From an uncultured Eggerthellaceae bacterium (GTDB taxonomy: Bacteria > Actinomycetota > Coriobacteriia > Coriobacteriales > Eggerthellaceae), in NCBI GenBank assembly GCA_934630905.1, contig CAKTXN010000003.1:2838-66837 (forward strand): a stretch of DNA of 64,000 nt, given 5' to 3'. Position numbers and translations under genes: made by a program. How positions within the stretch are numbered: position 1 is the stretch's first letter; each line of letters begins with the position of its first letter. Under the pieces are notes generated by a model. That model was not told the origin of the DNA, did no database searches, and was given only the letters and a program-made list of their open reading frames with translations. Below, one piece after another: positions 3,113-57,432 of the stretch.

Positions 3113-3115
3113 ATC

Positions 3116-4429: not shown

Positions 4430-4546
4430 CGTTTGGGATCGCTGGTTGCGGGGCGCGCTGTTGGTTGGAACTCGGGTATGGAGGTCGCCTGCGCCGATGC
4501 AGCCAGTTGGAACTCGGGTAACGTTCAGAGGCGAAAGGATTTTGCG

Positions 4547-5191
4547 ATGGTCACGATTGATGATGCAGACATTTCTCGGGAAAAAGCCGCTTTGCGTAAG
4601 AGCGTTATTGCTCGTCGCAACGAAATGAATCCCGGTGCTCGCGCCCAGAAAAGCGCTGCTATTTGTCGCGAGGTTATAGAGCAGTTAGAGGTAGCTTTTA
4701 AGCAGACGGGGTCTGTGTCGGGAAAACAGCCGCTGGTCGGCCTGTTTTCTGCGCTTGGCAGCGAAGTTGACCTGCGCGATGTTGTTCGCCATGTGCAGCA
4801 TGTGGGTTGGCGTATTGCCCTTCCCGTGATGGTTTTGCAAGAAGAAGCCCCTGGTTACACCATGCTTTTTGTGGATGTTGATTGTAAGACGGCTCTTTTG
4901 CGTCAAGAGGCATTCCTTGCGAAGCCTGCCAAGAATCTTGATCCGAGCGACTTTGACTTTGAGCGCTTCCCCCTTGTTTCCCCTGATGAGCTGGATGCTT
5001 TAGTGATGCCGCTGGTCGCTTTTGACAGCCAAGGCGGTCGCTTGGGTTATGGCGGGGGAAATTACGACCGCTATTTGCCGCAACTGCGTGAAGATTGCTG
5101 GGTGTCGGGCGTTGCTTTCGACGAGCAGTGCGTCCCGCGTGTTCCTCGCGCGGACTTTGATCTGGCAATTCCCCAGGTCATTCACGCGTAG
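4547..5191 (+). CDS. 5-formyltetrahydrofolate cyclo-ligase
   Basis: The track ORF 4433-5191 was trimmed to the ATG at 4547, which has GAAAGGA upstream. Motifs seen: EKAALRKSVIARR, LPV, GYGGGNYDRYL. Confidence 0.8.
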   Translation: MVTIDDADISREKAALRKSVIARRNEMNPGARAQKSAAICREVIEQLEVAFKQTGSVSGKQPLVGLFSALGSEVDLRDVVRHVQHVGWRIALPVMVLQEEAPGYTMLFVDVDCKTALLRQEAFLAKPAKNLDPSDFDFERFPLVSPDELDALVMPLVAFDSQGGRLGYGGGNYDRYLPQLREDCWVSGVAFDEQCVPRVPRADFDLAIPQVIHA

Positions 5192-5271
5192 CTGTTGGAT
5201 TTCGATTCTGCAGCTTGATGGCGACGGTTGGCGGTTGCAACTCGGCGTCCGCCGCTTTCCGTGTGGCTCGT

Positions 5272-5925
5272 TTAGAGCGACAGCAGCTGATCGAATTGCG
5301 AAATCAGGGCATCGGGGTTGGTTTCGCCAATGTTCCCGTTCGTGCCGTATCCGTATTCAACCGCTACCGCGAACGCGCCCGTTGCTTGCGCCACGCGGAC
5401 ATCGCCTGCGGAATCTCCCACATAAGCGGTTTCGTGCGCTAGAACGCCTAATTCTTTCATGGTGTTCAGCAGGCCTTGCGGGTTAGGTTTGCGCGGATAA
5501 TCAGGGCTTTCTCCGTGAACGGCATCGAAGATTCCCGGAAAAAAATGGTTGATGGTCATCTTGGCGTCTTCATCGCGCTTGTTTGAGAGCACCGCTAGTT
5601 TTGCGCCTTGGGCTTTCAGCGCTGTCAGTGTTTCTTTGACGTGCGGATAGAGCTTGGTGTGTTCCAGGCCGTGCTCAGCAAACGTGCCATACCAAGTGCG
5701 ATAGACTTCCTTCCCTTTTTCTTCGGGCAGCTCTTGTCCCAGTTCTTCCTGCAAAAGCACCACGATGCCGCCGCGTTGAAAGCAGTCCAGTATTTCCTTG
5801 CGCGTGTAAGTGCGCTTGCTTCCCATTTGGGCTAATGTCGTGTTGGTCACGGCAACGAAATCATCCATGGTGTCAAGCAGCGTGCCGTCTAGGTCGAAAA
5901 CATATGCGTCAAATCGCGGTGACAT
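5272..5925 (-). CDS. HAD-superfamily hydrolase (phosphoglycolate phosphatase-like)
   Basis: 217-aa ORF. HAD motif I is YVFDLDGTLLDT, motif II is LSN, and motif IV is YVGDSAGDV. Confidence 0.75.
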   Translation of the reverse strand: MSPRFDAYVFDLDGTLLDTMDDFVAVTNTTLAQMGSKRTYTRKEILDCFQRGGIVVLLQEELGQELPEEKGKEVYRTWYGTFAEHGLEHTKLYPHVKETLTALKAQGAKLAVLSNKRDEDAKMTINHFFPGIFDAVHGESPDYPRKPNPQGLLNTMKELGVLAHETAYVGDSAGDVRVAQATGAFAVAVEYGYGTNGNIGETNPDALISQFDQLLSL

Positions 5926-6003
5926 GAAGTGCCTTTCTTTCTAATTTCGCGCAAGAGTAAAACGTCATGGTACAATAACAAAGTTCGCTTTCGCGAGCAA
6001 GTT

Positions 6004-6079
6004 GCCTCCGTAGCTCAGGGGATAGAGCGTCGGTTTCCTAAACCGTGCGTCGGATGTTCGAATCATCTCGGGGGCACCA
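6004..6079 (+). tRNA. tRNA-Arg (anticodon CCU), CCA encoded
   Basis: 76 nt, folded by hand. The acceptor stem is GCCTCCG/CGGGGGC, the D arm is GCTC-AGGGGATA-GAGC, the anticodon arm is TCGGT-TTCCTAA-ACCGT, and the T arm is GGATG-TTCGAAT-CATCT. It ends in a 3' ACCA. Confidence 0.9.
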
Positions 6080-6088
6080 TGAAAAAGC

Positions 6089-6125
6089 CAGGTCAGAGCG
6101 TTATTCGCCCTGACCTGTTTCTTTT
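6089..6125 (+). terminator. rho-independent terminator after the tRNA
   Basis: Stem CAGGTCAG ... CTGACCTG followed by TTTCTTTT. Confidence 0.6.
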
Positions 6126-6328
6126 ACCGGACTTCTGAAAACGGGGAAAAGCGGGTGGAAAAGAGTGGAGAAGTGCACAACTTAGCACCCCTCTCTTGTA
6201 GGGCGACGACCGGTCATTCGCCCAGGCGGTTGTCGCTGTTCCGCGTTCGTGAGCAGTGCAACAAATCCGATTGGCTTTCGGCGAGCCTCGCTCGCTTGAG
6301 ACCCCGCTACTGCATTGCACGCGGCATG

Positions 6329-6871
6329 CTATTTGATGGAGGCGCCCAGCTTGCGGCATTCCTCGATTGCGGGCTTGCCGTTAACGGCGCCTTTCTCGTA
6401 GCTGTTGTTGCACAGCACAATGCCCAGGATTTCCTGGTGAGAGTAATTCATGGCAATTTCAAAGCTTTTCACCAGACCATCGGCGGTGGTAATATCCTTG
6501 TCTTCGAATGGCACGAGCATTGCCGCGCGCTTCATGGCGAATTTGCGTCCGCCTATTGCGCAGAACTGGCGATCCATGAACGCTTTTATTTGTGCGGGGT
6601 AGCTGTAGTAGTAAAGCGGGAATGCGTAAACAACGGTGTCGGCCCACTCCAGGTCGCCATAGAAGTTTTGCATGTCGTCTTTTTGGCAGCACTCGCCACC
6701 ATGGGTAAAGCAATATTCGCAGCCCAAGCAGCCGTTGATTTTTGCGCTGCCTACATGAGCTACGCGAATTTCGTTGTCGGCTTCGCGCGCGCCCTCAATA
6801 AACGCGTCTGCCATAATCTGGCTGTTGCCGCCTTTTCGGGGGCTACCGTGCACTACCAAGATGTTTGCCAT
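6329..6871 (-). CDS. NAD(P)H-dependent FMN reductase / iron-sulfur flavoprotein-like (flavodoxin fold)
   Basis: The start was trimmed to MANILVVHGSPRKGGNS, which has GAGAGGAA upstream. A Cys cluster CLGCEYC...CC is present. Confidence 0.7.
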   Translation of the reverse strand: MANILVVHGSPRKGGNSQIMADAFIEGAREADNEIRVAHVGSAKINGCLGCEYCFTHGGECCQKDDMQNFYGDLEWADTVVYAFPLYYYSYPAQIKAFMDRQFCAIGGRKFAMKRAAMLVPFEDKDITTADGLVKSFEIAMNYSHQEILGIVLCNNSYEKGAVNGKPAIEECRKLGASIK

Positions 6872-7042
6872 GCTGAATTCCTCTCTCAAAAGATTTTCTC
6901 TGACAAGTGCTCATGATGCTTCCATCTTTGCAAGTCGCAAGGCTTTGCTATCGACGTGCGTCTTGCAACTTGTCCGCTCCGACCCGCACGGTTGCGGCGG
7001 GCATGTACTTTTTCGCCCTTCGACCGCAGGTCAAATTCCCTT

Positions 7043-7483
7043 TTACGAAAGTCGAGCGCCTACTTCTTTTGCAGCGGCTGCTTTGTCGAAATTGCCGTCG
7101 GTTGCAGCAGTAAGGGCGCCCATGACTTTGCCCATGTCCTTTTTGGACGAGGCACCCAGCTCAGCAATCTTCTCTTCGATAAGCGCGATCAGCGCATTGC
7201 CCGACAGCTGCTGGGGCAGATATTCTTCCAAAACAGCAACTTGAGCAGCAAGTTTATCGGTGCGCTCTTGGTCGGAACCCTTTTTGGAATCTTCTAGCGT
7301 TTCCTTTGTTTGCTTGATGACGCGCTTAAGCATAGCACCTACGTCGGCTTCGGTAATCTCACGACGCTCGTTTACCTCGATGCTTTTGATTTCGGTTTTC
7401 ACCATGCGCAGAATGTCTCGGCGCAGGCTGTCCTTTGCGCGCATTGCGTTTTTGATCTCTTCGTCAAGGGCTGCATACTCCAT
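7043..7483 (-). CDS. yqeY: GatB/YqeY domain protein
   Basis: The start was trimmed to MEYAALDEEIKNAMRAKD, which has GAAAGGAG upstream. The C-terminus reads MGKVMGALTAATDGNFDKAAAAKEV. Confidence 0.8.
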   Translation of the reverse strand: MEYAALDEEIKNAMRAKDSLRRDILRMVKTEIKSIEVNERREITEADVGAMLKRVIKQTKETLEDSKKGSDQERTDKLAAQVAVLEEYLPQQLSGNALIALIEEKIAELGASSKKDMGKVMGALTAATDGNFDKAAAAKEVGARLS

Positions 7484-7575: not shown

Positions 7576-7650
7576 TCTTTTTGGCTTCTTGACTGCGTGC
7601 AGCTTTTCCATAAAGAAAGCGCCCGCTGATTGCGTGATGCGGACAAACAG
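7576..7650. repeat. left copy of a ~75-bp imperfect direct repeat flanking the 8108 locus
   Basis: The 26-bp core CCATAAAGAAAGCGCCCGCTGATTGC at 7608-7633 is identical to 8954-8979. About 30 bp on each side are roughly 70% similar. The second arm of the hairpin is decayed in this copy. Confidence 0.85.
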
Positions 7651-7794
7651 ACGTCTTCCTTGTGGGGTGTGGCAATATTAGAATGTCTGTACGGCCCGGC
7701 TTGCGCTCGGTATCGTTGAGTTAGAAGCGCATATTGTGGATTTAAGCTCTTCGATTGGGAGCCTTTGTTTGCTCTTTTCGGGGTTTTGAAAACT

Positions 7795-8074
7795 AAAATA
7801 GGAGGAAATCAAAATTATTTTGATTTCCTCCTATTTTTAATATGCACTACTTGAGCAAAATAGGAGATTTTGATAAAAAATTGAAATTTCTCCTATTATT
7901 TCTTTCAATTATCAAATGAAATTGCTTGTTTTGACTCATTTTGCACTGCGTGTTGTCTAAATCAAGGTTAAATAATAGGAGGAAAATTAAAAAATTTCAT
8001 TTTTCTCCTATTTTATCAAAGAGGACCGTGCTATAAATAGGAGAAATATAGAAAAAATACGATTCTCTCCTATT
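7795..8074. repeat. four homologous ~40-bp imperfect palindromes (AATAGGAG-N23-CTCCTATT)
   Basis: Copies lie at 7795-7837 (perfect 20-bp stem, 3-nt loop), 7859-7897, 7974-8012 and 8036-8074. They form two pairs, each 62 bp start-to-start, with 115 bp between the pairs. The DNA is AT-rich. Confidence 0.9.
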
Positions 8075-8107
8075 TTAGATGAAAGCAAAGGAATAAGGGG
8101 GTGCGCA

Positions 8108-8914
8108 ATGTTGCTGGATGAGGTCAAATCAGAGCTGGCCGAGCTAAACGATGCAATCGAGTGGGCACAAAAGGGACTTAGCAAGGCGCCTGAGGGCTCT
8201 TTGCTCGTCGATGACTCAAAAAACGGTATTCATTATTATTGGCGCAAGACAGCTACGGATAAAAAAGGTGTTTACCTGGGCAAAGGCGACCAGGAGCAAG
8301 TTCGCGCTCTTGCACAAAAAGATTACGAGGCTCGCTTGCTTAAGGCTGCCGAAAAGGAAAAAGCCTTGCTTGAGCGAATTCAAGTACGCTGCGACAAGGG
8401 AGGCTTGCAGGGCTCAGGGGTCCTCGGGCTGACTTACGAAAACCTGTCTGATGCTCGAAAAGAGCTGGTGGAGCCTTATATTTTGTCAAACGACGAGTAT
8501 GCTCGACGCTGGCAGCTTGAAGAGTATGCAGGTAATTCACATCCGTTTGGATCGTATTCGCTATTCACGCGCGGTGGCGTGCGGGTGCGCTCGAAATCCG
8601 AAGTGCTTATCGCTGACGCTCTAGAGGCGGCGGGCGTGCCGTATAAATACGAGCGCCCTCTCAACCTGGGAGGATACAATCCCGTCTATCCTGACTTTAC
8701 GGTATTGAACAAGCGTACTCGCGCAGAATATTATTGGGAGCATTTTGGGGGCATGGATGATGCTGAGTACCGAGAGGGCATGGTGCACAAGCTAAACAGT
8801 TATGCGTTGGCTGGCATATTTCCCGGTGAGCAGCTTTTGGCTACTTACGAGACATCGGAAACGCCCTTGGATACACGCGTTATCAGGGTACTTATTGAAA
8901 AATACTTGCTTTAG
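8108..8914 (+). CDS. hypothetical protein with C-terminal PD-(D/E)xK (TnsA/Vsr-like) nuclease-fold motifs
   Basis: 268-aa ORF with AAGGGGG upstream of the ATG. The N-terminal half is coiled-coil-like. The C-terminal half reads RSKSEVLIADALEAAGVPYKYERPL ... YPDFTVL ... YYWEHFG. The fold assignment is by motif resemblance only. Confidence 0.55.
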   Translation: MLLDEVKSELAELNDAIEWAQKGLSKAPEGSLLVDDSKNGIHYYWRKTATDKKGVYLGKGDQEQVRALAQKDYEARLLKAAEKEKALLERIQVRCDKGGLQGSGVLGLTYENLSDARKELVEPYILSNDEYARRWQLEEYAGNSHPFGSYSLFTRGGVRVRSKSEVLIADALEAAGVPYKYERPLNLGGYNPVYPDFTVLNKRTRAEYYWEHFGGMDDAEYREGMVHKLNSYALAGIFPGEQLLATYETSETPLDTRVIRVLIEKYLL

Positions 8915-8922
8915 TAAAAGCT

Positions 8923-8996
8923 TCTTTTTGACTTCTTGGCCGCAATCGGCATTCCATAAAGAAAGCGCCCGCTGATTGCATGGGAGCAGACAAGCG
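8923..8996. repeat. right copy of the ~75-bp direct repeat flanking the 8108 locus
   Basis: See 7576-7650. This copy keeps the intact terminator hairpin. Confidence 0.85.
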
Positions 8997-9027: not shown

Positions 9028-10230
9028 CTATTTGTTGGCAGCAGCTTTGCGCGCAATGAATCCAACTGCGCAGGTTGCAGCAAACACGATAATCATAACG
9101 GGGAATGTGCTTCCCAGTGGTGTATCGATAACCATGAACTGGCGATATAAAATGAAGCCGCAAACCCAAATAATCAGATTTGGCCAGTTGAAGCTTGTGG
9201 CCATATCATCGCGCTTCAACACGAAGTAGTTCGCAATGATGACAGCGATCATGGGGGCAAACACGCTGCCGATCAGGTACAAGAAGTCCGTGATGTCAGC
9301 AAGGGGCAGGGTGATGGCGCCAATGGTGCCCAGGGCCGTTACGATAAGCGCCACAATCTTCCCAGGGACTTTTTTGCCGAACGGCGTGCCGATGGACTCC
9401 GATGAAACGCCGGCGCTGTTTGCGTCCAAGAACGTTGTGGTTACCGTTGAGAAGATGATGATGATAAGGCCCGCAGCGCCCATGCCCGTTTTCAGCATGA
9501 TCTGCGCGATGTCGGACTCGCCTGTGAAGATTGCCATTGACATGCCAATGGCGTACATCCAGCAGCTGACCAGTCCGTATACAATCGAGCTTGCAGCGGT
9601 GGCGGCAACGGGCTTTGCTGCGGTGCGCGTGTAATCGCTTACCAGCGGCAGCCATGAAAGGGGCATGGCAACGGCAAGTTCAACAGCCGCGCCAAACGTC
9701 AGACCGTCGTTTTCCACGCCCAGCGGCACCGCGCCGCTAAACGCGCTCACGCACAGCACTAGCGTAAGAATGAACAGCGCAAGCACGGCAACAATGTTGA
9801 TTTTCTCCAGATTGCGAATGCCAATCAGAATCCATGCAGCAATCAACACGCCAATAACTAGGCACCATATCCATGCGCCGCAATCGAAAAGCGTGCTGGC
9901 GGAAAGCGCGCCGTCATAAATCATGATGCCGGTCCAGCCTACCAGCTGCAAAACGTTAAGCGTGGCGAACAGCACGGCGCCCTTTTGGCCAAAGCTCATG
10001 GCCGCTGTTTCCATGGAGCTACGCTGCGTCTTTGCGCCGATAAGCCCCGCAAGGAAAAGCAGCAGGCAGCCGATGATGTGGCCCACAACAATTGCAGCCA
10101 AGCCGATGGAAAAGCCCAGGCTGGCGAAGTAGGTGCCGGTCAGAATTTCGGCAAGCGAAACGCCCGCGCCGAACCATATCAGGCTGTTTTCGAGCACAGT
10201 TGTCCCGCGCGTTTCAGATGAAGTAGTCAT
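9028..10230 (-). CDS. cytX: cytosine/purine permease-family transporter, putative hydroxymethylpyrimidine transporter
   Basis: 400-aa protein with about 12 TM segments and AAGGGGA upstream of the ATG. It lies 40 bp downstream of thiD in the same operon. The substrate is inferred from that context. Confidence 0.7.
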   Translation of the reverse strand: MTTSSETRGTTVLENSLIWFGAGVSLAEILTGTYFASLGFSIGLAAIVVGHIIGCLLLFLAGLIGAKTQRSSMETAAMSFGQKGAVLFATLNVLQLVGWTGIMIYDGALSASTLFDCGAWIWCLVIGVLIAAWILIGIRNLEKINIVAVLALFILTLVLCVSAFSGAVPLGVENDGLTFGAAVELAVAMPLSWLPLVSDYTRTAAKPVAATAASSIVYGLVSCWMYAIGMSMAIFTGESDIAQIMLKTGMGAAGLIIIIFSTVTTTFLDANSAGVSSESIGTPFGKKVPGKIVALIVTALGTIGAITLPLADITDFLYLIGSVFAPMIAVIIANYFVLKRDDMATSFNWPNLIIWVCGFILYRQFMVIDTPLGSTFPVMIIVFAATCAVGFIARKAAANK

Positions 10231-19280: not shown

Positions 19281-19408
19281 ATTGCACCGTTACAGTGCAA
19301 TTTAAGCGAAAAAATGCACCATCACAGTGCAATATACTTTGAAAATTGCACCGCCACGATGCAATTTCTGGTAAAATTTGCACTATCACAGTGCAAATAT
19401 ACTTCTCA
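19281..19408 (+). repeat. 4 x 32-bp tandem units, each containing TTGCAC-N7-GTGCAA
   Basis: TGCAC occurs at 19283, 19315, 19347 and 19379. GTGCAA or ATGCAA occurs at 19295, 19327, 19359 and 19391. The period is exactly 32 bp. The array ends 25 nt before the ATG of the downstream ATPase. Confidence 0.9.
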
Positions 19409-19432
19409 AAAACTGAAAAGGAGTGAGTTAAG

Positions 19433-20599
19433 ATGGAATCGCTTTATGAGTACATGCAGAACCAGCTTAACAACACCGATTTTTCTTTTAAGCGGTATCA
19501 ATACAATCGAATCAATTGGGATAATCGCATGTTGGCCCTGGTTGGCCCACGCGGCGTGGGCAAAACCACGCTCTTCCTACAGCGGATTCGTGATGCCCAT
19601 GCCAATGGTGGGGCATTGTATGTGAGCGCCGATCATTTGTATTTTGCAACGCATACGTTGCTTGAGGTGGCGGACGCGTTTTACAAGCGCGGTGGCGCCT
19701 ATTTCTTCATCGACGAGGTTCATAAGTACCCCGGATGGTCTCGCGAACTCAAAAACATCTATGATGCTTATCCTGACCTGCATGTTTACTTTACCGGTTC
19801 CTCTGTTCTTGATATCGAGAAGGGCGAAGCGGATCTTTCTCGTCGTGCTCCGCGATACCACATGCAGGGGCTTTCGTTTCGCGAGTTCCTTAAAATCCGT
19901 CACGGAATTGACGCGCCGGTGTTCTCGCTCGAACAGATTCTTGACAACAAGGCGGCAATCCCTGGCTTAAAGCATCCTCTTCCTTTGTTTGAAGAGTATC
20001 TTCGCTGCGGATATTATCCTTTTGGGGAAGATGCTGATTTCGATATGGAGCTTCGTCAGGTTATAACGCGAACGCTGGAACAGGATATTCCTGCGTATGC
20101 CCAGATGAACGTGGCAACGGGACGCAAGTTACTGAAACTGATGGTTGTTGTGAGCGAGCTGGTTCCCTTCAAGCCAAACATGAGCAACTTGGCCAAGATG
20201 ATTCAGGTTGGACGTAACAACGTGGAAGAGTATCTTGTCTACATGGAGAAAGCGGGAATGATTTCCCTGCTCAGAACGGGCGCGAGCGGGCTGGGTGCGT
20301 TAGGAAAGGCGGAAAAGGTCTACCTGGATAATCCGAATATCCTTTTCAATTTAAGCAACGAATGCAGCGTTGGTACCGTGCGGGAAACCTTCTTCTTCAA
20401 CCAGATGAGAGTAAATCACCTGGTCACAGCATCGGGGGCTTCGGATTTTATGATAGATGGACGTACATTCGAAATAGGGGGACCTGGTAAGGGGCAATCT
20501 CAAATCAAGGATGTTGACGACGGTTACGTGGTGAAGGACGGAATCGAATACGGTTTCGGGAATGTGATCCCGCTTTGGGCGTTTGGCCTTAATTATTGA
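19433..20599 (+). CDS. AAA+ ATPase (AAA_14/DUF4143, COG1373-type) with C-terminal PD-(D/E)xK-like motifs, paralog A
   Basis: 388-aa ORF with AAAAGGAG upstream. Walker A is LVGPRGVGKTTL and Walker B is FFIDEVHKYPGW. The C-terminus reads RETFFFNQM...SDFMIDGRTFEIGG. It is visibly AT-richer than its flanks. Confidence 0.8.
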   Translation: MESLYEYMQNQLNNTDFSFKRYQYNRINWDNRMLALVGPRGVGKTTLFLQRIRDAHANGGALYVSADHLYFATHTLLEVADAFYKRGGAYFFIDEVHKYPGWSRELKNIYDAYPDLHVYFTGSSVLDIEKGEADLSRRAPRYHMQGLSFREFLKIRHGIDAPVFSLEQILDNKAAIPGLKHPLPLFEEYLRCGYYPFGEDADFDMELRQVITRTLEQDIPAYAQMNVATGRKLLKLMVVVSELVPFKPNMSNLAKMIQVGRNNVEEYLVYMEKAGMISLLRTGASGLGALGKAEKVYLDNPNILFNLSNECSVGTVRETFFFNQMRVNHLVTASGASDFMIDGRTFEIGGPGKGQSQIKDVDDGYVVKDGIEYGFGNVIPLWAFGLNY

Positions 20600-20662
20600 C
20601 GTATGACGATGCTTGCTTGATTCTTCGGAGACAAACTCCAACCTCTTTTGTCTTGGACTTGT

Positions 20663-21652
20663 CTACGAGTCTTCTGCCTCGTAGGTGTGAACGTTGCCGC
20701 GGACGTCAATGAAAATAGCGGAAATGATTTCCGGTTGCGCTTCGCAGAAAGCTAGACCGTTTTCGACGCCCAAGGCAAGTGCTGTGGTGGAGAAGCCTTC
20801 CGCGTCGATTGATTTTTCGCATACGATGGTGGCACCTACGGCATCGGTCACTACAGGAAACCCTGTTTGCGGGTCCAAAATGTGATGCATGAGCACGCCG
20901 TTTTTCTGAAAGCAGCGCTCGTACGTTCCGCTGGTTACCACCGATTCCCCCGTGCATCGCACAACCACATTCTCACTTTGATCGGGGAAGGGGTTCGTGA
21001 TGCCAATGGTCCAGGGCTTGCCCTGCGCATTGTAACCGTGCGCTAAAACATTGCCGCCCAAGTTGATAAGAAAGTTCGCAAAGCCTTCGCGCTGAAGATG
21101 TTTTCCCAGCTCATCGGCAATCCAGCCTTTCGCGATACCGCCCACGTCAAGAGCGGCATCGGAATCGGAAAGCTGCACGTACCAGGTGTCGTTTTCCTGA
21201 AAAACATCCACGGTGCGCCAATCAACATGCTGCACCGCTTGCCGCAACGTTTGCTCTTCGGGAACAATGCCCTGATGAAAATCCCAAAGCCGCGTAAGGC
21301 ACCCTGCGGTTACATCGAACACCCCGCCGCTCTTCTCGCAATACGTTAACGCGCGCGTTACCAGCTGAGCGGTTTCGGCTGCAACGGCAACAGCTTTGCC
21401 TTGTGCGCTATTGATGCGAGAGATATCCGAGGTGGGGATTGTTCGGGAAAACAGGTTTTCGTATCGTTCGCACAGCACGCGCAACTCGTGAAAAGCCTTG
21501 TTGACCTGCGGTGATACGTCTTCTATGGTTGAGGCAACACCTTCGCCACCTTTGATCCCGTTGGTGCGCTCGACCTCTTCACCGCCTTCAAGACACAGCG
21601 AGAACGTAAGCACGGTGTTGAATGCTTCGAATGTATCATCGAACCTGATCAT
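20663..21652 (-). CDS. apbE: FAD:protein FMN transferase
   Basis: 329-aa ORF. Motifs seen: FDVTAG, DVGGIAKGW, and TSGTYERCF. No signal peptide is evident. Confidence 0.85.
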   Translation of the reverse strand: MIRFDDTFEAFNTVLTFSLCLEGGEEVERTNGIKGGEGVASTIEDVSPQVNKAFHELRVLCERYENLFSRTIPTSDISRINSAQGKAVAVAAETAQLVTRALTYCEKSGGVFDVTAGCLTRLWDFHQGIVPEEQTLRQAVQHVDWRTVDVFQENDTWYVQLSDSDAALDVGGIAKGWIADELGKHLQREGFANFLINLGGNVLAHGYNAQGKPWTIGITNPFPDQSENVVVRCTGESVVTSGTYERCFQKNGVLMHHILDPQTGFPVVTDAVGATIVCEKSIDAEGFSTTALALGVENGLAFCEAQPEIISAIFIDVRGNVHTYEAEDS

Positions 21653-24802: not shown

Positions 24803-26169
24803 ATGAATGACGTACTGATTGTGGGCGCAGGGCCCGGAGGAATCTTTACCGCTTATGAGCTGCTGGAGAAGCGGCCCGACCTGAGTATTGCTCTTTTCGA
24901 AATGGGTAATGAGCTGGAGAAACGTCATTGCCCCATTGATGGCGATAAGATCAAATCTTGCATTCGCTGCAAACACTGCTCGATCATGAGTGGTTTTGGC
25001 GGCGCGGGCGCCTTCTCCGATGGCAAATACAATATTACGAACGATTTCGGCGGAACGCTGTACGAATACATTGGGAAAAAGCCTGCGCTTGAGCTCATGG
25101 AGTACGTTGACAAGATCAATCTGGCATTCGGCGGCGAAGGCACCAAGTTGTACTCGACCGCCGGTTCCAGCTTGAAAACCAGTTGCATGCAAAACGGGTT
25201 GCACTTGCTGGACGCTTCCGTTCGCCATTTGGGAACCGATATCAACTACATTGTTTTGAAGCACCTGTACGACCACTTGAAGAACAAGGTCGAATTCCAT
25301 TTCAATTGCTTTATCGATCGCGTGGAAAAGCTGGACAACGGGTATCGCATTTATCACGAAGGCACTGCCTACGAAGGGAAAAATGCGTTATTTCCGCAGG
25401 TCGAAGTGGCAGCAAGTGGATGGAGCAGGTGTGTCGCGACCTGAATATCAACACGAACTCCAATCGTGTGGACATTGGCGTGCGCGTGGAGCTGCCGGCG
25501 GGAATCTTCGCCCATCTTACCGATGAGCTGTACGAAAGCAAGATAGTGTACCGCACCTCGAAATACGAAGACCTGGTGCGCACCTTCTGCATGAATCCCA
25601 AAGGCGAAGTGGTCAACGAGAATACGAACGGCATTGTTACCGTCAACGGACACAGCTACGAGGACCCAGCGAAGCAAACCGAGAACACGAACTTTGCGCT
25701 GTTGGTTGCGAAGCATTTTTCCGAACCGTTCAAAGATTCCAATGGCTATGGCGAAAGCATTGCGAAGCTGAGCAACATGTTGGGCGGCGGCGTGATCATC
25801 CAACGTTTTGGCGACCTGATCAGAGGACGCAGAAGCACCGAAGAGCGCATCGCCGAATCCTTCACCATTCCCACGCTGAATGCTGCGGCGGGCGATTTGA
25901 GCCTGGTGTTGCCGAAGCGAATTCTAGATGGCATTATCGAGATGATTTACGCGCTGGATAAAATTGCACCCGGCACCGCAAGCGACGATACGTTGCTCTA
26001 TGGCGTGGAAGTGAAGTTCTACAATATGGAAGTGCAGCTTGACCATAACCTTATGATGTGCCACGAGGGGCTGTACATCATTGGCGACGGAAGCGGCATT
26101 ACGCATTCGCTTTCGCATGCGTCGGCCAGCGGCGTGTATGTGGCGCGCCAAATTGCCGACAAGATATAG
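24803..26169 (+). pseudogene. FAD-dependent oxidoreductase (COG2509-like) with a 1-nt frameshift at an A5 run
   Basis: The N-terminal part reads MNDVLIVGAGPGGIF and runs 24803-25444. The continuation KCVISAGRSGSKWMEQVCRDLNI is in the -1 frame (ORF 25183-26169). The frames switch in AAAAA at 25379-25383. An A6 run would give EGKKCVISAGRSG. Confidence 0.65.
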
Positions 26170-26275
26170 CGGAGTGACGCGGCGGGTTCTTATCGGTAAT
26201 ATGCGATTTTGGGTAGACGCCGAGCTGTTTGCCGCCGCCGATTGACCTTTCTTTTCCGTGTTGCTCCCAAGACTG

Positions 26276-26803
26276 CTACGTCGAGTATCGAGCGCGATAA
26301 CGGCGAGAAATCCAAAGCCCAGCGGCACTTATGGCAAGTCCTAAAACAAGGCCACCCAGAATGTCGCTGGGGAAATGGACGTACAAATACATGCGCGAGA
26401 ACGCAATGAGCACGGCAAGCGGGATTACTACCAGGCCAAACTTTCGATTTGCGGCGGTAAGGACGGTAGCGCCAATAACGGAAGCCATGGTGTGTCCCGA
26501 AGGAAACGAGTAATCGCCCGGTGTTGCAATGAGCATTGCAACACTTTCGTCAAGCCAGCAGGGGCGTGGCCTCATGACAAAATTCTTGAGGAACCCATTT
26601 CCGATAAGCGCCCCAACAGCCAGGCATCCCAAAAGAACAACGCCATATACGCGATACTTCTTGCTGCAAAGCAAAGCAATTGCGGCAACGATCCAGATTG
26701 CGCCGATGTTTCCCAGCGCCGTGATGATGGGCATGACAACATCCAAGAACGTGCAGGTCACGTAATCCTGGATTGCCTGCAAAATCCCCCAATCAAAGCC
26801 CAT
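26276..26803 (-). CDS. PAP2-family phosphatase (undecaprenyl-diphosphatase-like)
   Basis: 175-aa membrane protein. Motifs seen: RPRP, SFPSGHT, and SRMYLYVHFPSD. Confidence 0.85.
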   Translation of the reverse strand: MGFDWGILQAIQDYVTCTFLDVVMPIITALGNIGAIWIVAAIALLCSKKYRVYGVVLLGCLAVGALIGNGFLKNFVMRPRPCWLDESVAMLIATPGDYSFPSGHTMASVIGATVLTAANRKFGLVVIPLAVLIAFSRMYLYVHFPSDILGGLVLGLAISAAGLWISRRYRARYST

Positions 26804-26832
26804 GTCCCACTCCCTTCATCCGCGTATCGTGC

Positions 26833-26937
26833 GATGTTGACAAATTACCCCACCTTTTGTCAACAATTGCCCGCTAAATCCACGGGACGAACGAAGCTGT
26901 TTGTACGCTTGAGGCTGGAGGCGAATTGTTACGCGCG
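26833..26937. repeat. left copy of a ~105-bp direct repeat flanking ATPase B (contains a REP-like palindrome)
   Basis: The 59-bp stretch 26841-26899 is identical to 28557-28615. The flanks are similar as far as TTACGCGCG. The copy contains TTGACAAATTACCCCACCTTTTGTCAACAA (26837-26866). Confidence 0.9.
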
Positions 26938-27050
26938 ATCAAGCTATCGCCACAATGCCCGAGAAGAGCCGCCGTTCTCGTTGCTGTGCTTTGCAGAAAG
27001 CGCTGCTCCTATCATCGCGTTTAATTGCGGTTCTGGCTTCAAAATGATAT

Positions 27051-27168
27051 CTATTCCAAATTTATGTAACATGTTAAGTTTTTTCGGAATAGATTGACTT
27101 TGTTTCATCGCCCTTGTATCGTCTTTCTATTCCAGATTTATGTAACATGTTAAGTTTTTTCGGAATAG
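27051..27168 (+). repeat. two copies of a 42-bp palindromic unit CTATTCC-N28-GGAATAG with inner TAACATGTTA
   Basis: Copies at 27051-27092 and 27127-27168 match at 41 of 42 positions and start 76 bp apart. The second ends 10 nt before the ATPase B start codon. Confidence 0.9.
27094..27122 (+). promoter_or_regulatory. candidate sigma70-type promoter between the two palindromes
   Basis: TTGACT (27094-27099), a 17-nt spacer, then TATCGT (27117-27122). Confidence 0.4.
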
Positions 27169-27178
27169 AGGAACGAGC

Positions 27179-28435
27179 ATGCAGTCGAAAAGGGAAGAGT
27201 ATCTTGCAAAACTTGCGAAGAAGCGTTTGAGTCCGTACATTAAAGTTATTACAGGTATTCGTCGTTGCGGAAAAAGCTATCTGCTTAAGACGCTCTATCG
27301 CGACTATCTTCGTTCTGCTGGTGTTGATAATCGGCAGATTGTTTCCGTAGAGCTTGATGATGACAGGTTTGAAGAGCTGCGCGATAAGAACGCCCTTCGA
27401 AGCTATATCGAGAATAAATGTTCCGATGACAGTCTGCAGTACTATGTATTCATAGATGAAGTGCAGATGGCTGCGGGGTTTGAGGGCGCGATTATCTCGC
27501 TCAATAATCATCCTAACTACGATATGTACATTACCGGCAGTAACTCCGAGTTCCTGTCCAGGGATATATCTTCAAAGTTTCGGGATCGTGGAGACGAAAT
27601 CAGAATACATCCGCTCTCGTATAAAGAATTCTACGACGTATACCAAGGTGATAAGCGCTTCGCTTTGACGGATTACTTGACCTTTGGCGGTATGCCTCGC
27701 CTTATAAATGAGTCGGACGCTGTGGAGAAGATGGCCTATTTGGTCAACCTGGTTGAAAACACCTACCTGGCAGACGTGGTTGAACGCAATCACGTCCGCT
27801 TGCCCGAGGAAATGGGGGCACTTTTTGACGTTCTGTGTTCTACAACGGGCTCGCTGGTGAATCCCAGCAGCCTGGCGGGGACATTGCTTTCGGAAAAACA
27901 CGTCAAGATAGATGGGAAGACTGTCTTTTCCTATATGGAGCACTTTGAGAGAGCATATCTATTAGAGATAGTTAAAAGATTCAACATCAAAGGCAAAAGT
28001 TATTTGAAAAGCAGCTTCAAGTGCTATCCAGAAGATGTTGGACTCCGGAATGCTCGACTCAACTTTCGCCAGCTTGATCAAGGGTTTGGTATTGAGACGG
28101 TTGTTTATAACGAGCTTCGTCGCAGGGGGTATCGTGTTGATGTTGGCATGATTGAAACAAGGGAGCGCGACAAGGAGGGTAAGCAGGTTTACAAGCAGAA
28201 TGAGGTTGATTTTGTCGCTCGGCTTGCCAGCAAGGAATATTACATCCAAGTCATGGATAAATCTCCTTTGGGTCAACATGGTGCAAACGAGTACGGCAAT
28301 CTCTTGAAGGTTCCAGGGTCCTTCAAGAAGATTGCTGTAGTAAACGAGCCGTTTCGGGCATACACCAACAGCGACGGCATACTTGTGGTTTCTCTGGAGG
28401 AGCTCTTGCTTGAACGCGATTCTCTTGATTGGTGA
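27179..28435 (+). CDS. AAA+ ATPase (AAA_14/DUF4143 type) with C-terminal PD-(D/E)xK-like motifs, paralog B
   Basis: 418-aa ORF with GAGGAA upstream. Walker A is ITGIRRCGKSYLL and Walker B is VFIDEVQ. The C-terminus reads VVYNELRRRGYRVDVG...EVDFVARLASKEYYIQV. It is AT-richer than its flanks. Confidence 0.8.
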   Translation: MQSKREEYLAKLAKKRLSPYIKVITGIRRCGKSYLLKTLYRDYLRSAGVDNRQIVSVELDDDRFEELRDKNALRSYIENKCSDDSLQYYVFIDEVQMAAGFEGAIISLNNHPNYDMYITGSNSEFLSRDISSKFRDRGDEIRIHPLSYKEFYDVYQGDKRFALTDYLTFGGMPRLINESDAVEKMAYLVNLVENTYLADVVERNHVRLPEEMGALFDVLCSTTGSLVNPSSLAGTLLSEKHVKIDGKTVFSYMEHFERAYLLEIVKRFNIKGKSYLKSSFKCYPEDVGLRNARLNFRQLDQGFGIETVVYNELRRRGYRVDVGMIETRERDKEGKQVYKQNEVDFVARLASKEYYIQVMDKSPLGQHGANEYGNLLKVPGSFKKIAVVNEPFRAYTNSDGILVVSLEELLLERDSLDW

Positions 28436-28536
28436 TTTTCTCATCGCTTGGTGCTTTCGACAGGAGGTCGTGCGGTCGTTGTTTCTCAGGGCTGAAAATG
28501 GCAATGGAGGATACGGCTGGCGTTGTACGGGAGCGT

Positions 28537-28649
28537 CGATGTTGTCAAATTGTTGTCAAATTACCCCACCTTTTGTCAACAATTGCCCGCTAAATCCACG
28601 GGACGAACGAAGCTGCGTGCTTGAGGCTAGAGGCGAGTTGTTACGCGCG
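28537..28649. repeat. right copy of the ~105-bp direct repeat flanking ATPase B
   Basis: See 26833-26937. It has an extra internal duplication (TTGTCAAATTGTTGTCAAATT). It overlaps the last 3 codons (stop included) of the 28641 gene. Confidence 0.9.
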
Positions 28650-29153
28650 TTTCGGGAGTTTCTTCAGCAGCGCCCAAGCCTTTTGCTTCAAATCGGGTTT
28701 GGCAAGCATCGCCTCAAACGAGGAAAACGTTACCGCATCGCGTCCCAAGATGCGCGTATATGCGTTCGGCGAAAGCTGAAAACGATGCAGTTCTTTTGCG
28801 TCTTGACCGCGATAAATCGCTTCTTGCGCGACGCGATAGGCCTGTTCCAGCGCGCGTACCGCATCTTTATCGGCAGCGACAAGTGCAAGAGGATCAATTC
28901 CTTCGATGAGCGAAAAAAGCTGCTTGGCGTTCAGCGCGTCACGGCCACGAGGCTCAATCACAACGAAGGAGCAGTTTTGCGCGCCGTATCCGAGCGCTTG
29001 GGCAGAGCTCGCAAGCGCTTTCTTCGCATTTTCGCCCAAAGGCGCTTGCGAAACAACGCAAAACAGGGGCGTGAAGGCATCGGCGCTGCCGCCCGCGAGC
29101 TCCACATGGCGCGCGTAACGGTCGAGCACGGTATCGCGAGCGACGGAATACAT
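28641..29153 (-). CDS. hypothetical protein
   Basis: The track ORF runs 28641-29435. The N-terminal 94 codons look non-coding. I provisionally trimmed to MYSVARDTVLDRY, but no SD is present, so the start is uncertain. No family was recognised. Confidence 0.4.
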   Translation of the reverse strand: MYSVARDTVLDRYARHVELAGGSADAFTPLFCVVSQAPLGENAKKALASSAQALGYGAQNCSFVVIEPRGRDALNAKQLFSLIEGIDPLALVAADKDAVRALEQAYRVAQEAIYRGQDAKELHRFQLSPNAYTRILGRDAVTFSSFEAMLAKPDLKQKAWALLKKLPKRA

Positions 29154-29412
29154 ATTACTTTTAGCGGAAAAATTCACACCGACCCCTGATAAACCTGTTG
29201 CAAATTCAAATGTATGATTAATAATAGCACCAGATAGGAATGGCAAGGTCAAGAGCGCAAAACCACGGATTTTCTCCTGCGCTTGGACCGCGCGTTTCCT
29301 TTGCGCAATAAAAGAACGGTACAATGCGAAATTGCGCATTACCGCGCTAGGTGTGAAAAGGGCCGCGGAGGCGCAGGCTCCGGCGGCGTTCGCAAAAAGA
29401 AAGAGGGTTCCC

Positions 29413-29667
29413 ATGTGCACAAACGGTGTAAACATCGGTCAATTCGATCAGATGATTGAGCAAATCAGCGATCACATTAAGCTGGAGCGTCGTTGGACGC
29501 ATAGGCTTGCCCATCAGGCAGAAGATACCGGTTTCGAGAAAGCGCATCGCAAGATGCACGAAGCACAGGCGCTGCTTGACGAGGCTCTGGCCATGCTTGA
29601 CGAGGCAAAGGACCTGCTGGAAGAAGACGCAGAAGACGCCAGCGGTGTGAAAGTGAGCCTGGTCTAA
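29413..29667 (+). CDS. small helical protein (84 aa) abutting nikR
   Basis: AAGAGGG lies upstream of the ATG. The TAA stop is immediately followed by the nikR ATG. The sequence is rich in His, Glu and Ala with heptad-like spacing (HRKMHEAQALLDEALAMLDEAKDLLEE). Confidence 0.45.
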   Translation: MCTNGVNIGQFDQMIEQISDHIKLERRWTHRLAHQAEDTGFEKAHRKMHEAQALLDEALAMLDEAKDLLEEDAEDASGVKVSLV

Positions 29668-31974: not shown

Positions 31975-33294
31975 CTATCTTTGCGTAAGAAGAAATGCCA
32001 GGTAATGCGGCAGTGTTAGTATTTCTCCTGTACGGCCGATATTCAGGTCGGCAAGCTTTATGGCTGATTCCACGTGATATTTCTCGGGATGCTTGAGGAT
32101 GGTTTTTATGCTTTTTGCATTACCATCGTTGGCTTTTACTTCAACTGGCACACACTTTCCTTTGTAGCGAATCACAAAGTCAAGCTCAAGACCAGAATCC
32201 TTTCTGAAGTAATAAAGCTTCCTGCCCATTTTTGAGAAGATGTCTGCGATAAGGTTCTCGTAGATGCCGCCTTTATAACTAAAAAGATTGCCGTTAAGAA
32301 TATCGAACTGGGTTCCATCTTCAAGCATGCTCACGAACAGACCAGTGTCCGCCATGTATATCTTGAACTGGTCGTCTATTGCGTTGCCGTCCAAGGGAAG
32401 CTCAGTAATGGACAGATTGTTGCATCGGGTGATTATGCCCGCATCCTCAATCCATTGAAGGCTGCCTGCGAAGCGAGCGGCGGTTGACCCTTTTTTTGCC
32501 AGCGAATACTGGAATTTCTTGTTTTCTTTGGCCAACTGCCTTGGGATTGACTGGAAGCATTGTTTGATGAGCGACTTGTCTGCTGCTGGGGCGTATTTCA
32601 CCATGTCGTCTTCGTAGGCACGTACGATATCGCGCTGAATGCGCAACACGCTTGCCATATCGCGATTGTCCACGAATGACTGAACGGCGTCGGGCATGCC
32701 GCCTACCACGGTATATTCCAGTAGCAGCGAGCGCATACGGGAATGCAAAGCCGGCGGAACCGGCGTTTCGGCTTCGAGATGGGAACGAAGCATCTCAATC
32801 ATTGAATCGGATATATCGTTTGCCCAGCAAAACTCTTCAAAGTCCAGCGGATGCATGCTTATAAGTGTTTCATAGCCCACGGGAACAGAGGCTGGCTCTT
32901 TACCGTAGCCAGCCACTCCAAGGAGCGATCCCGTGCCAATGACATCATAGCGTCCATCAAGGCTGAAGAACTTAAGAGCCGTGCGCGCTTGCGGGCATTC
33001 TTGTATTTCATCAAGAATCAGGACCGTTTCCCCTGGCACGAAGCGCGTTGAGGCACCAAGATACGCAGAGGCCATCATGGTGATTTGGTCTACGTCCAGC
33101 GACCCTGCGAAGATATCTTTTGCACCTGGGTTTTCAAAGAAATTGATGTAAACAACATTACGGTAATTTTCCTGAGCGAAGTGCAATGCAGCAAACGTCT
33201 TTCCGCATTGCCTGCACCCCTTGATAATTACTGGCTTGTGGTTGGGTTCGACTTTCCATGCCAAGAGTTGATCTATGATTTTTCTCTTTAACAT
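31975..33294 (-). CDS. AAA+ ATPase (AAA_14/DUF4143 type) with C-terminal PD-(D/E)xK motifs, paralog C
   Basis: 439-aa ORF. Walker A is IKGCRQCGKTF and Walker B is LILDEIQECPQA. The C-terminus reads IYENLIADIF...LELDFVIRYKGKCVPVEVKA. It is AT-richer than its flanks. Confidence 0.8.
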   Translation of the reverse strand: MLKRKIIDQLLAWKVEPNHKPVIIKGCRQCGKTFAALHFAQENYRNVVYINFFENPGAKDIFAGSLDVDQITMMASAYLGASTRFVPGETVLILDEIQECPQARTALKFFSLDGRYDVIGTGSLLGVAGYGKEPASVPVGYETLISMHPLDFEEFCWANDISDSMIEMLRSHLEAETPVPPALHSRMRSLLLEYTVVGGMPDAVQSFVDNRDMASVLRIQRDIVRAYEDDMVKYAPAADKSLIKQCFQSIPRQLAKENKKFQYSLAKKGSTAARFAGSLQWIEDAGIITRCNNLSITELPLDGNAIDDQFKIYMADTGLFVSMLEDGTQFDILNGNLFSYKGGIYENLIADIFSKMGRKLYYFRKDSGLELDFVIRYKGKCVPVEVKANDGNAKSIKTILKHPEKYHVESAIKLADLNIGRTGEILTLPHYLAFLLTQR

Positions 33295-33320
33295 ATCATT
33301 AGCTTTCTACCTGGGACGAT

Positions 33321-33448
33321 AAACTTTTTCAAGCGACTTTTTCGTAAATTATAAACTTTTTCAAGCGACTTTTTTGGAAATCTGCAACTTTTACAAGGGA
33401 CTTTTTCGCGTTTCAGCAATTTTTCCAAGGGACTTTCGGGTGCACTTC
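33321..33448 (-). repeat. 4 x 32-bp tandem units directly upstream of ATPase C
   Basis: Plus-strand units start at 33321, 33353, 33385 and 33417: AAACTTTTTCAAGCGACTTTTT twice, then CAACTTTTACAAGGGACTTTTT and CAATTTTTCCAAGGGACTTTC. The period is exactly 32 bp. Each unit has an ACTTTTTC sub-repeat 11 bp apart. Confidence 0.9.
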
Positions 33449-40694: not shown

Positions 40695-40697
40695 ATG

Positions 40698-40953
40698 TTG
40701 ACAAATTACCCCACCTTTTGTCAACAAGGTGAAAAAGTGGCGGGGTCTTTTTTCACCTTTTTTCATGATGGTCTCCTTCGATCCGTAACTTCGTAAATCC
40801 AAGTTTTGCCTGATAACCTGTCATTGGGAAGTTTTGCTTGGTCTTTGCTGCAGGTTTATCCGCACTTTGCAGGGGAAAATCTGTCTTGACCCGTTGTGTT
40901 TGCGGGGTTTGCGGGCGCGATTGTTGACAAAAGGTGGGATAATTTGACAACAA
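40698..40953. repeat. inverted pair of the REP-like palindrome enclosing ~195 bp (MITE-like)
   Basis: TTGACAAATTACCCCACCTTTTGTCAACAA lies at 40698-40727. Its reverse complement, with 2-3 mismatches, lies at 40921-40953. The interior has a second hairpin: GGTGAAAAAG ... CTTTTTTCACC plus a T6 run (40728-40763). Confidence 0.8.
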
Positions 40954-56032: not shown

Positions 56033-56061
56033 GTCCGTCTCCTTCTTAGTTTCATTTAGTG

Positions 56062-56090
56062 ATTATGTCACATGTTGCATTTTCGCTCAA
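56062..56090 (-). promoter_or_regulatory. candidate promoter of ATPase D
   Basis: Read on the minus strand: TTGAGC (56090-56085), a 17-nt spacer, then CATAAT (56067-56062). The -35 and spacer are identical to 57249-57270. Confidence 0.5.
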
Positions 56091-56139
56091 TGAAAATCTT
56101 AGAGCAGCGTGGGTAGGAAAGCGTCTTCGTCGCGGTAGA

Positions 56140-57039: not shown

Positions 57040-57241
57040 AGGGTTGTACCCCCCCCTTATCGGCAAAAAACATCGTGGGTTTATTATAGCAAATAGCGTT
57101 ATTTATTGCCGTTATCGGCAAAATTCTTTATTTCTACCTGTTCAGTCGGTATTCGCGGGAAAATGCTTCCAAGTCGCGTTCCCTTCCGCACATCCCTTGT
57201 GCAGCCAAAGGCGACCTACGAACAGGGGCTCGCGATTTTTG

Positions 57242-57270
57242 TAATATCCACATGTTGCATTTTCGCTCAA
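57242..57270 (-). promoter_or_regulatory. candidate promoter of the Fic gene (duplicate of the ATPase D module)
   Basis: Read on the minus strand: TTGAGC (57270-57265), a 17-nt spacer, then ATATTA (57247-57242). Confidence 0.4.
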
Positions 57271-57432
57271 CGATAAACGCGAAACCATGTGAATCGATAT
57301 GAGTGCGATTGTCAATCGGGAGACGATTGTGATGCAACGGATTGGGTTGAGAGAAAAGAAGGAATCTCGCGCCAGGCAGAAAAGGAATCTGCCGCGCGAA
57401 GGTAAACATCGGGTGCTATGCGCCCGTTTGCT

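Follow-up and report, generated by a model that had tools for sequence, protein, structure and literature searches.

Insertion with long target duplication has been described for restriction-modification units (Nobusato et al., 2000, as cited in PMC2853133), and Furuta, Abe and Kobayashi (2010; PMC2853133) report such units between long target duplications of variable length, with no other mobile element involved. In their cases, the repeats measure ~46 to ~420 bp and often reach a few bases into the 3' end of a gene (2 or 15 bp in Haemophilus), and the inserts deviate in GC content; the cargo is suspected of causing double-strand breakage, but no mechanism is shown (PMC2853133). Target duplications of 8-514 bp are also known from IS1634/IS1549, for which there is no mechanistic model (PMC2266710). 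Here, we describe a locus that appears to belong with the cases of Furuta et al. It lies in a stretch of 64,000 nucleotides from an uncultured Eggerthellaceae bacterium (assembly GCA_934630905.1, contig CAKTXN010000003.1, positions 2,838 to 66,837 of the forward strand), which we refer to as the window, and consists of a single gene for an AAA_14/DUF4143 ATPase, paralog B in the following, between two direct repeats of ~105 nt.

The DUF4143 domain has been classed as a PD-(D/E)XK fold of unknown function (PMC3424549). Its combination with AAA_14 (COG1373) is catalogued as PDC-S01, reportedly the fourth most common defence candidate in prokaryotes, validation of which is pending (PMC12988326), and COG1373 counts among the genes that gut genera most frequently co-share (PMC10782964). 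The 'guilt-by-embedding' paper offers no explanation of how the embedding arises, and the PDC-S01 literature that we searched describes neither flanking duplications nor movement of the gene. How single-gene defence systems enter chromosomes without a mobility gene is the question addressed by the present locus, which offers a clean pair of an occupied and an empty site in the spacer between a PAP2-family phosphatase gene and a gene for a protein of 264 aa.

We consider it probable that the two ~105-nt copies are the target duplication left by a single insertion of a foreign cassette of ~1.6 kb. Directly observed are the duplication itself, a single-copy site in a relative, the foreign composition of the insert and the spread of its gene across phyla, the absence of a recombinase gene and of inverted ends, and the recurrence of flanking repeats around related genes. 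These comparisons support a known class of event, insertion with long target duplication, here with a PDC-S01 cargo that is not described for it in the literature searched. From left to right, the locus is composed as follows:

26276..26803, minus strand: left flanking gene, PAP2-family phosphatase (Pfam PF01569, E 5.5e-25).
26832..26937, no strand: left copy of the putative duplicated target, 106 nt, with the variant TGTTTGTACG, which is that of the single copy at the empty site.
26835..26865, plus strand: hairpin of the repetitive extragenic palindrome (REP) type in the left copy, 10-bp stem and 11-nt loop, member of a genome-wide family of 98 copies.
26938..27049, plus strand: 5' part of the insert, 112 nt of host-like GC content, unconserved in a 77%-identical cassette of a related genome (G004).
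27050..27093, no strand: operator-type palindrome 1, 44 nt, with the outer arms TCTATTCC/GGAATAGA and the centre AACATGTT.
27094..27122, plus strand: promoter-like TTGACT-17-TATCGT between the palindromes; homologues have TTGACT/TTGACA-N17-TATAAT in the same place.
27126..27169, no strand: operator-type palindrome 2, identical to palindrome 1 at 43 of 44 positions and ending 9 nt 5' of the ATG.
27179..28435, plus strand: cargo gene, 418 aa, with AAA_14 ATPase, winged-helix and DUF4143 (PD-(D/E)XK fold) domains (Pfam, PADLOC).
28436..28536, plus strand: 3' tail of the insert, ~100 nt, unconserved in the G004 cassette.
28537..28649, no strand: right copy of the putative duplicated target, 113 nt, in a variant with a 4-nt deletion common to the genome under study (G000) and two relatives (G008, G009).
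28551..28581, plus strand: REP hairpin in the right copy.
28641..29435, minus strand: right flanking gene, 264 aa, whose last two codons and stop lie within the repeat.

Part of the evidence comes from the state of this spacer in related genomes. On contig C32 of G003, the PAP2 gene adjoins a single 103-nt copy, which is followed by the 264-aa gene with no cassette in between; the left flank of our locus aligns to positions 949-2275 of this contig and the right flank to 2173-3726, such that the two alignments overlap in exactly one 103-nt copy. Throughout its informative part, this copy carries the variant of the left copy. The whole structure, with both copies and the same junctions, is found at 94-95% identity over 4.5 kb in G008 and G009; the occupied form was also the only one returned by a look-up with the PAP2 protein, on an independent European Nucleotide Archive (ENA) contig. 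Between G000, G008 and G009, the cassette has diverged to the same extent as its flanks, so that the event would be old and inherited. The earlier note on this DNA, made from its letters alone, had read the locus as a one-gene cassette with no recombinase, around which an intergenic target with a hairpin appeared to have been duplicated, and had suggested to look for an empty site in relatives; the single copy without cassette in G003 supports this proposal and provides the presence/absence polymorphism whose lack was named as a reason to abandon it.

The two copies also recombine with each other, since the left copy of G008 has been converted to the right-copy variant. Furthermore, the first 65 nt of the repeat hardly vary among the eight aligned copies, which come from five species-level genomes, so that the perfect core of the repeat reflects conservation or conversion rather than a recent event or the core of an att site. 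A different arrangement is found in G001, where a truncated left copy is followed by a 4-kb ABC-transporter operon and then by a remnant of the cassette, comprising one palindrome (palindrome 2), the ribosome-binding site (RBS) and the first 9 nt of the ATPase open reading frame (ORF); beyond 9 nt of filler, the right flank resumes. As this operon occupies the same spacer, the latter has been used repeatedly as an insertion site. The operon (L021, G001:C11:22500-33500; 3291-7224 in window orientation) encodes an S-adenosylmethionine (SAM) methyltransferase, an ABC ATPase, a FecCD-type permease and a substrate-binding protein.

Upstream arrays outlast lost ATPase ORFs elsewhere in the window as well (19281-20669, 31983-33350, 55980-56096; L021). 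Paralog A is missing in G008 and G005, yet three of its four TTGCAC-N7-GTGCAA units are kept; paralog C is missing in G009, where a 32-nt array and the RBS region are kept; and G001 retains the operator and first 3 codons of paralog B as well as the upstream region and first 7 codons of paralog D. In place of the lost ORFs, unrelated stretches of 76-97 nt are found, or the 9-nt filler in case of the paralog B remnant in G001.

On the level of the repeat itself, 59 nt at 26841-26899 are identical to 28557-28615, at an offset of 1716 bp, and this core occurs just these two times within the window. The ungapped match extends over 65 nt with one mismatch (26835-26899 / 28551-28615), restarts beyond a 4-nt indel with 29 of 31 identical positions (26907-26937 / 28619-28649), and amounts to 99 identical columns in a gapped alignment of 118. 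The 59-bp perfect core within ~105-bp repeats that had been read from the sequence is therefore real, with copies of 106 and 113 nt that differ by indels; the right copy of G000 lacks 4 nt and has one additional 11-nt tandem unit, TGTTGTCAAAT, a duplication found in G000 alone. Both copies terminate in TTACGCGCG, which in the right copy encodes Arg-Ala-stop of the minus-strand ORF 28641-29435, exactly the last two codons and stop that the earlier note had recognized there. The repeat thus overlaps the 3' end of the 264-aa gene by 9 nt, while 28 nt separate the left copy from the start codon of the PAP2 gene. The 264-aa protein has no family match; the synteny of its gene with those for NikR and an AIR-synthase-related protein is retained in other genera.

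Each copy of the repeat contains TGTTG(A/T)CAAATTACCCCACCTTTTGTCAACA, which as single-stranded DNA is predicted to form a 10-bp stem with an 11-nt loop (-8.2 kcal/mol, z = -4.9 versus shuffles). When we searched the whole 2.36-Mb assembly of 293 contigs with the 108-nt left copy, we obtained full-length matches at two sites only, and ~48 further matches that were restricted to positions 3-36 and hence to the hairpin; a pattern search allowing up to 4 substitutions found 98 copies of the hairpin in the 2.36 Mb. The family includes 15 convergent pairs, 36-583 nt apart, and the single Y1_Tnp gene of the genome, resembling REP-associated tyrosine transposases (RAYTs), lies at G000:C7:9844-10197 with a copy 240 nt away at 9573-9603. 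Given this copy number, the convergent pairs and the Y1-transposase gene with its nearby copy, the hairpin qualifies as a REP, as had been surmised. By contrast, the remaining ~70 nt of the repeat have no copies in the genome beyond these two. The first 34 nt are accordingly multi-copy REP and the rest is unique, so that the worry that the whole ~105-bp unit might be a frequent dispersed repeat applies to the hairpin alone; nor does the repeat match a tRNA or Rfam family, and none of either was found in 26000-29600. The hairpin is a resident REP and probably a bystander rather than the cause, as other cassettes duplicate hairpin-free targets, including the coding ends of genes. The REP family (TGTTGACAAATTACCCCACCTTTTGTCAACA) is conserved in the genus, with several copies at contig ends, and is represented in the window at 26835-26865, 28551-28581, 40695-40727 and 40921-40953.

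The insert comprises ~1.6 kb with one gene and has a GC content of 0.459, as compared to 0.544 for both the window and the genome. Its protein has relatives of 70-72% identity in Erysipelotrichaceae and Candidatus (Ca.) Avigastranaerophilus, whereas the housekeeping neighbour ApbE has none above 41% outside the genus; GC content and cross-phylum protein identity together mark the cassette as foreign in origin. The earlier note had described its content as ~240 bp of spacer, two 42-bp palindromes and the ATPase gene. There is indeed a single ATPase gene, but the 241 nt in front of it already include the two palindromes, which measure 44 nt each, and a tail of ~100 nt (28436-28536) follows its stop codon. 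The 5' spacer and the 3' tail have no other copy or donor site in the same genome or in 150 genomes of the family. A 77%-identical cassette in G004, which sits elsewhere, beside a RelE-like gene, is alike only in the segment that begins with the palindromes and ends with the stop codon. Terminal inverted repeats were sought by end-to-end alignment of the paralog B cassette and seven others, which gave scores no better than shuffles. As claimed, there is no recombinase gene in the insert, and the neighbouring genes, encoding PAP2, the 264-aa protein and NikR, include no integrase or transposase.

Conserved upstream of the gene is a unit of operator, promoter and operator, in which CGGAA..GTAACATGTTA..TTCCGAATAG flanks TTGAC-N17-TATAAT. 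It is found in front of ATPase genes of 70-87% identity and is shared across Eggerthellaceae, Erysipelotrichaceae and Ca. Avigastranaerophilus (L048, L049, L045; 27050-27169 in the window), an arrangement that would fit autoregulation via the winged helix. Each ATPase paralog of the window has its own, different upstream array. An orthologue of paralog D is present in a cultured relative, Ellagibacter isourolithinifaciens DSM 104140. The ENA contig k141_185078 (L262), otherwise 100% identical, has one 44-nt palindrome and lacks the intervening promoter, a difference of 76 bp that could stem from either recombination between the palindromes or assembly collapse.

The cargo protein matches Pfam PF13173 with 105.9 bits and PF13635 with 59.1 bits, both over the cut-offs, and over its full length the PADLOC model PDLC04787 for PDC-S01 (E 9.5e-105, 348.8 bits), which is matched by all four AAA_14/DUF4143 genes of the window; NCBIfam and a sequence search of solved structures gave no match. 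It is thus a candidate phage-defence gene of a widespread type, and, as it comes with no methylase, not a unit of restriction and modification genes. Its AlphaFold2 model (pLDDT 89) has an Orc1/Cdc6- or STAND-like predicted fold: Foldseek matches it to the archaeal AAA+ protein SSO1545, to Orc1/Cdc6 initiators and to STAND ATPases such as CED-4, Apaf-1 and plant resistosomes, and more weakly to CARF-nuclease proteins. In an alignment of 25 homologues, the Walker A residues G26, G31 and K32 and the Walker B residues D93-E94 are invariant, as are the acidic residues E312, D321, E342 and D344 of the C-terminal domain; the lysine of the (D/E)xK motif could not be placed confidently in this subfamily. 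Within the genome, the cassette is present in a single copy, and the nearest paralogs of its gene are 39-43% identical.

A 40%-identical ATPase gene is found in Prevotella nigrescens on a circular-plasmid record of 2,630 bp (L260/L261; NZ_CP133466.1, NZ_CP082843.1), together with part of an Eco57I-like restriction-modification gene. We considered this circle as a free form and discarded it as uninformative, being identical to a chromosomal segment without bounding direct repeats. That segment adjoins an Mpi-type invertase, and the ATPase gene lies in it between two Eco57I-like gene parts.

Flanking repeats recur around relatives of the cargo gene. Scoring a repeat at 40 bits or more, we found one at 14 of the 68 loci of the paralog D subfamily that had enough flanking sequence, with lengths of 24-189 nt and a different sequence each time, at ~4 of 76 Fic loci, and at 8 of 573 ORFs of 300-500 aa from the same genome. 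The last group consists of paralog B, the Fic gene, two DUF559-like genes, one ORF between two REP copies, two beside tandem paralogous or duplicated sequence, and one other; four of these eight ORFs are cassettes of the present type. Homologues of paralog B in other phyla are flanked by a 60-nt repeat that takes in the RBS of the downstream gene together with its first 13 codons (L049), by a repeat of ~50 nt (L054) and by a composite repeat of 44+90 nt (L048); in the paralog D set, the final ~20 codons of a radical-SAM gene lie within a 66-nt repeat (L116). The units inserted around homologues extend 36-514 nt upstream and 15-384 nt downstream of the gene. With a different repeat at each locus, an att, attC or dif site common to all of them is excluded. 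Found around about a fifth of the related genes and in several phyla, such repeats suggest a general route of gene gain, and they raise the possibility that 'defensome' statistics count selfish insertions in part.

Other single genes of the window and the genome are bracketed by repeats as well. A helix-turn-helix (HTH)-Fic gene (56140-57066, minus strand; PADLOC PDC-S04, E 3.6e-106) lies in a 1.15-kb insert (56097-57248) flanked by a 28-nt duplication (56069-56096 / 57249-57276). G001 has the corresponding empty site with one copy on C30, and an 88%-identical Fic gene elsewhere, on C25; judged by this comparison, the Fic cassette is a second event of the same kind in the window. A nuclease-like gene at 8108-8914 (region 7606-8982), the C-terminal part of which resembles the PD-(D/E)XK end of PADLOC PDC-S68, has a 31-nt flanking repeat copying the 5' half of a terminator hairpin. 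Four 42-nt palindromes lie upstream of it. All five congeners checked have this cassette; the pair of palindromes is itself a repeat dispersed in the genus at 75-79% identity. Two single genes of the DUF559-like type (Vsr-type nuclease fold; G000:C23:17664-18904 and G000:C35:5588-7578) are flanked by direct repeats of 77 nt and 213 nt with 97% and 91% identity, respectively. Unlike the paralog B repeat, each of these represents an entire member of a dispersed palindromic repeat family, of which the genome has another 4-12 diverged copies; either a whole element may have been duplicated here, or these may be cassettes of another kind. The Ca. Avigastranaerophilus genome that harbours L048 (G043) has 22 matches to paralog B of 32-71% identity, a few being pieces of one broken gene; several form tandem clusters, and many lie between copies of one dispersed repeat (…CATCCGCCCTAATCCTGTTATCCGTTGC…). 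In Bifidobacterium, each genome checked has 11-15 DUF4143 genes.

Under the reading that we prefer, the cassette would have inserted into a spacer of ~135 bp between the 264-aa gene and the PAP2 gene, in a common ancestor of three or more species-level lineages of this Eggerthellaceae genus. With the base of the resident REP hairpin at one end of the duplicated stretch and the stop codon of the 264-aa gene at the other, this means that each flanking gene keeps a complete copy of the spacer. Mechanistically, the target strands may have been broken ~105 nt apart, or a replication fork may have switched template and returned ~105 nt upstream; the incoming DNA would then have been joined and the single-stranded stretches filled in, duplicating the segment between the breaks, with no recombinase or transposase acting in cis. 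Once formed, the copies would be able to recombine, through gene conversion as seen in G008 and possibly through precise loss of the cassette. On its left side, the repeat begins at the base of the REP hairpin, and several other targets are terminators or palindromic repeats. Structure-prone DNA may thus favour insertion, or insertions may simply be tolerated at such sites; as a full spacer is left to both neighbours, they would be nearly neutral, which alone may enrich them.

Several points weigh against a single insertion with target duplication. The right copies of G000, G008 and G009 share a 4-nt deletion and 2-3 substitutions that are missing from the empty site of G003, which could mean that the right copy arrived with the element. 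Phylogeny does not prove the direction of the event: unrooted trees of the flanks split {G001, G003} from {G000, G008, G009}, and a rooted tree of NikR and the AIR-synthase-related protein (AIRS) is unresolved, with 52-59% support and mosaic gene identities. Since a remnant of the cassette persists in G001, the single copy in G003 could result from secondary precise loss instead of representing the ancestral state. Of the nine DUF4143 loci in this genome, which the earlier note had wished to see checked for flanking direct repeats, only one has such repeats; some homologue-flanking repeats are operator hairpins or dispersed repeats and not target duplications. For the cases in other phyla, no empty sites were found, the relatives of the Erysipelotrichaceae genome and of Bifidobacterium colobi being too diverged or non-syntenic, and an exact-protein look-up for a Ruthenibacterium locus returning the same contig alone. 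Finally, no donor site, free form or enzyme is known for the cassette.

Among other explanations, the likeliest is that the cargo inserts itself: the PD-(D/E)XK domains of its DNA-bound oligomer would nick both strands of the target tens to ~200 nt apart, and the gene with its operator-flanked promoter would then be joined in. Flanking repeats are indeed commoner around PDC-S01 relatives than around Fic genes or ordinary ORFs, the inserted unit is always made up of promoter, gene and short tail, the protein combines an Orc/STAND-like fold with a nuclease-fold domain, and Furuta et al. proposed double-strand breakage by the cargo as a shared property. Yet the HTH-Fic and DUF559-like cassettes leave the same footprint in this genome, the element ends differ between the 77%-identical cassettes of G000 and G004, the paralogs within the genome are old (~40% identity) with no recent copies among them, the (D/E)xK lysine is in doubt as described above, and a hydrolytic nuclease cannot join DNA. 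We therefore regard self-insertion as unlikely, and likewise the narrower proposition that the ATPase-nuclease itself makes the breaks. A shade less likely again appears a wider version, in which PDC-S01 genes would be recombinase-less, one-gene selfish elements rather than (only) defence genes, binding their own palindromes and making staggered breaks that result in duplications of 25-200 bp, preferentially at hairpin-rich intergenic sites such as REPs, terminators and palindromic repeats. If it were true, the abundance and 'embedding' of PDC-S01 genes would reflect self-propagation.

Homologous recombination offers another route, as a circle of the cassette and one spacer copy, released from an occupied site in another strain, could integrate by a single Campbell-type crossover into a single-copy site. 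This would account for a left copy that has the empty-site variant while the right copies of three genomes have another, and it is in line with the gene conversion in G008 and with the mosaic flanking genes, which point to frequent homologous exchange. However, it explains the spread within the genus and not the first event, as it needs a pre-existing duplicated site; the equal divergence of cassette and flanks, 94-95% identity over 4.5 kb, fits a single old event with vertical descent, and the cases in other phyla duplicate unrelated targets. We thus deem this route improbable. Even more so does this apply to site-specific recombination, in which the REP hairpin or the 59-nt core would serve as an att-like site for a Y1, Xer or integrase enzyme acting in trans. 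While 2-5 nt separate the left border from the base of the hairpin, a perfect core between imperfect arms is reminiscent of att, and the one Y1_Tnp gene has its REP 240 nt away, the repeat runs 70 nt past the REP into locus-unique sequence, the other 96 REP copies are not associated with cassettes, and the repeats of other cassettes are unrelated, some being coding and some hairpin-free. Moreover, the core is conserved in every copy of every genome and hence uninformative on a crossover, and Y1 transposases of the IS200/IS605 family are not known to make target duplications; altogether, it seems highly improbable. The suspicion that there was no event at all, but a chance or dispersed repeat or an artefact of assembly, is understandable for a metagenome-assembled genome (MAG) of 293 contigs with 5.8% contamination and REP copies that are often at contig ends. 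It can practically be dismissed, as three independent MAGs and one ENA contig have the structure in common, chance cannot give a perfect match of 59 nt, and ~70 nt of the repeat have no copy besides these two.

In comparison with known systems, the locus differs from most elements that it resembles. Insertion sequences and mobile insertion cassettes have terminal inverted repeats and a transposase in cis or near-identical copies, neither of which is found here. With IS1634/IS1549, the locus shares target duplications of variable and unusual length, but these elements have a DDE transposase, inverted ends and several identical copies, and an IS1634-type element was rejected for lack of a transposase, inverted ends and multiple copies. 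Integron cassettes, pdif modules and integrase islets are likewise recombinase-less one-gene units between repeats; they rely, however, on common attC, dif or att sites and a recombinase, whereas each cassette in our case is bracketed by a copy of its own local target. An integron cassette or pdif module was rejected, as there is no common recombination site and the repeats are locus-specific. The same holds for an integrase/att islet, given the absence of a recombinase, the location of the homologous G004 cassette at another site and repeats that differ per locus. REP/RAYT systems provide a parallel for the hairpin, not for the cassette: a multi-copy hairpin and a Y1 transposase gene with an adjacent REP are found here too, but the REP is part of the duplicated target and not the end of the cassette, for which reason a composite REP transposon was rejected. 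To our knowledge, REP/RAYT activity neither inserts genes nor makes duplications.

By its cargo, the locus belongs with PDC-S01, with which it shares the full-length match, both domains, the Walker A and B motifs and stand-alone occurrence. By its structure, it comes closest to the insertions described by Furuta et al. Its repeats exceed 30 bp and align with a single copy in an insert-free relative (106 and 113 nt versus 103 nt in G003), and its insert, at 1.6 kb, stays below 20 kb and has no mobility gene in or beside it. In both cases, a defence-type unit of deviating GC content lies between locus-specific repeats of variable length that overlap the 3' end of a gene, by 9 nt here. Their cargo consists of restriction and modification genes, whereas ours is one ATPase-nuclease gene with an operator-flanked promoter; the present host is a gut member of the Eggerthellaceae (Actinomycetota), and the event appears to be old, being present in three species-level lineages.

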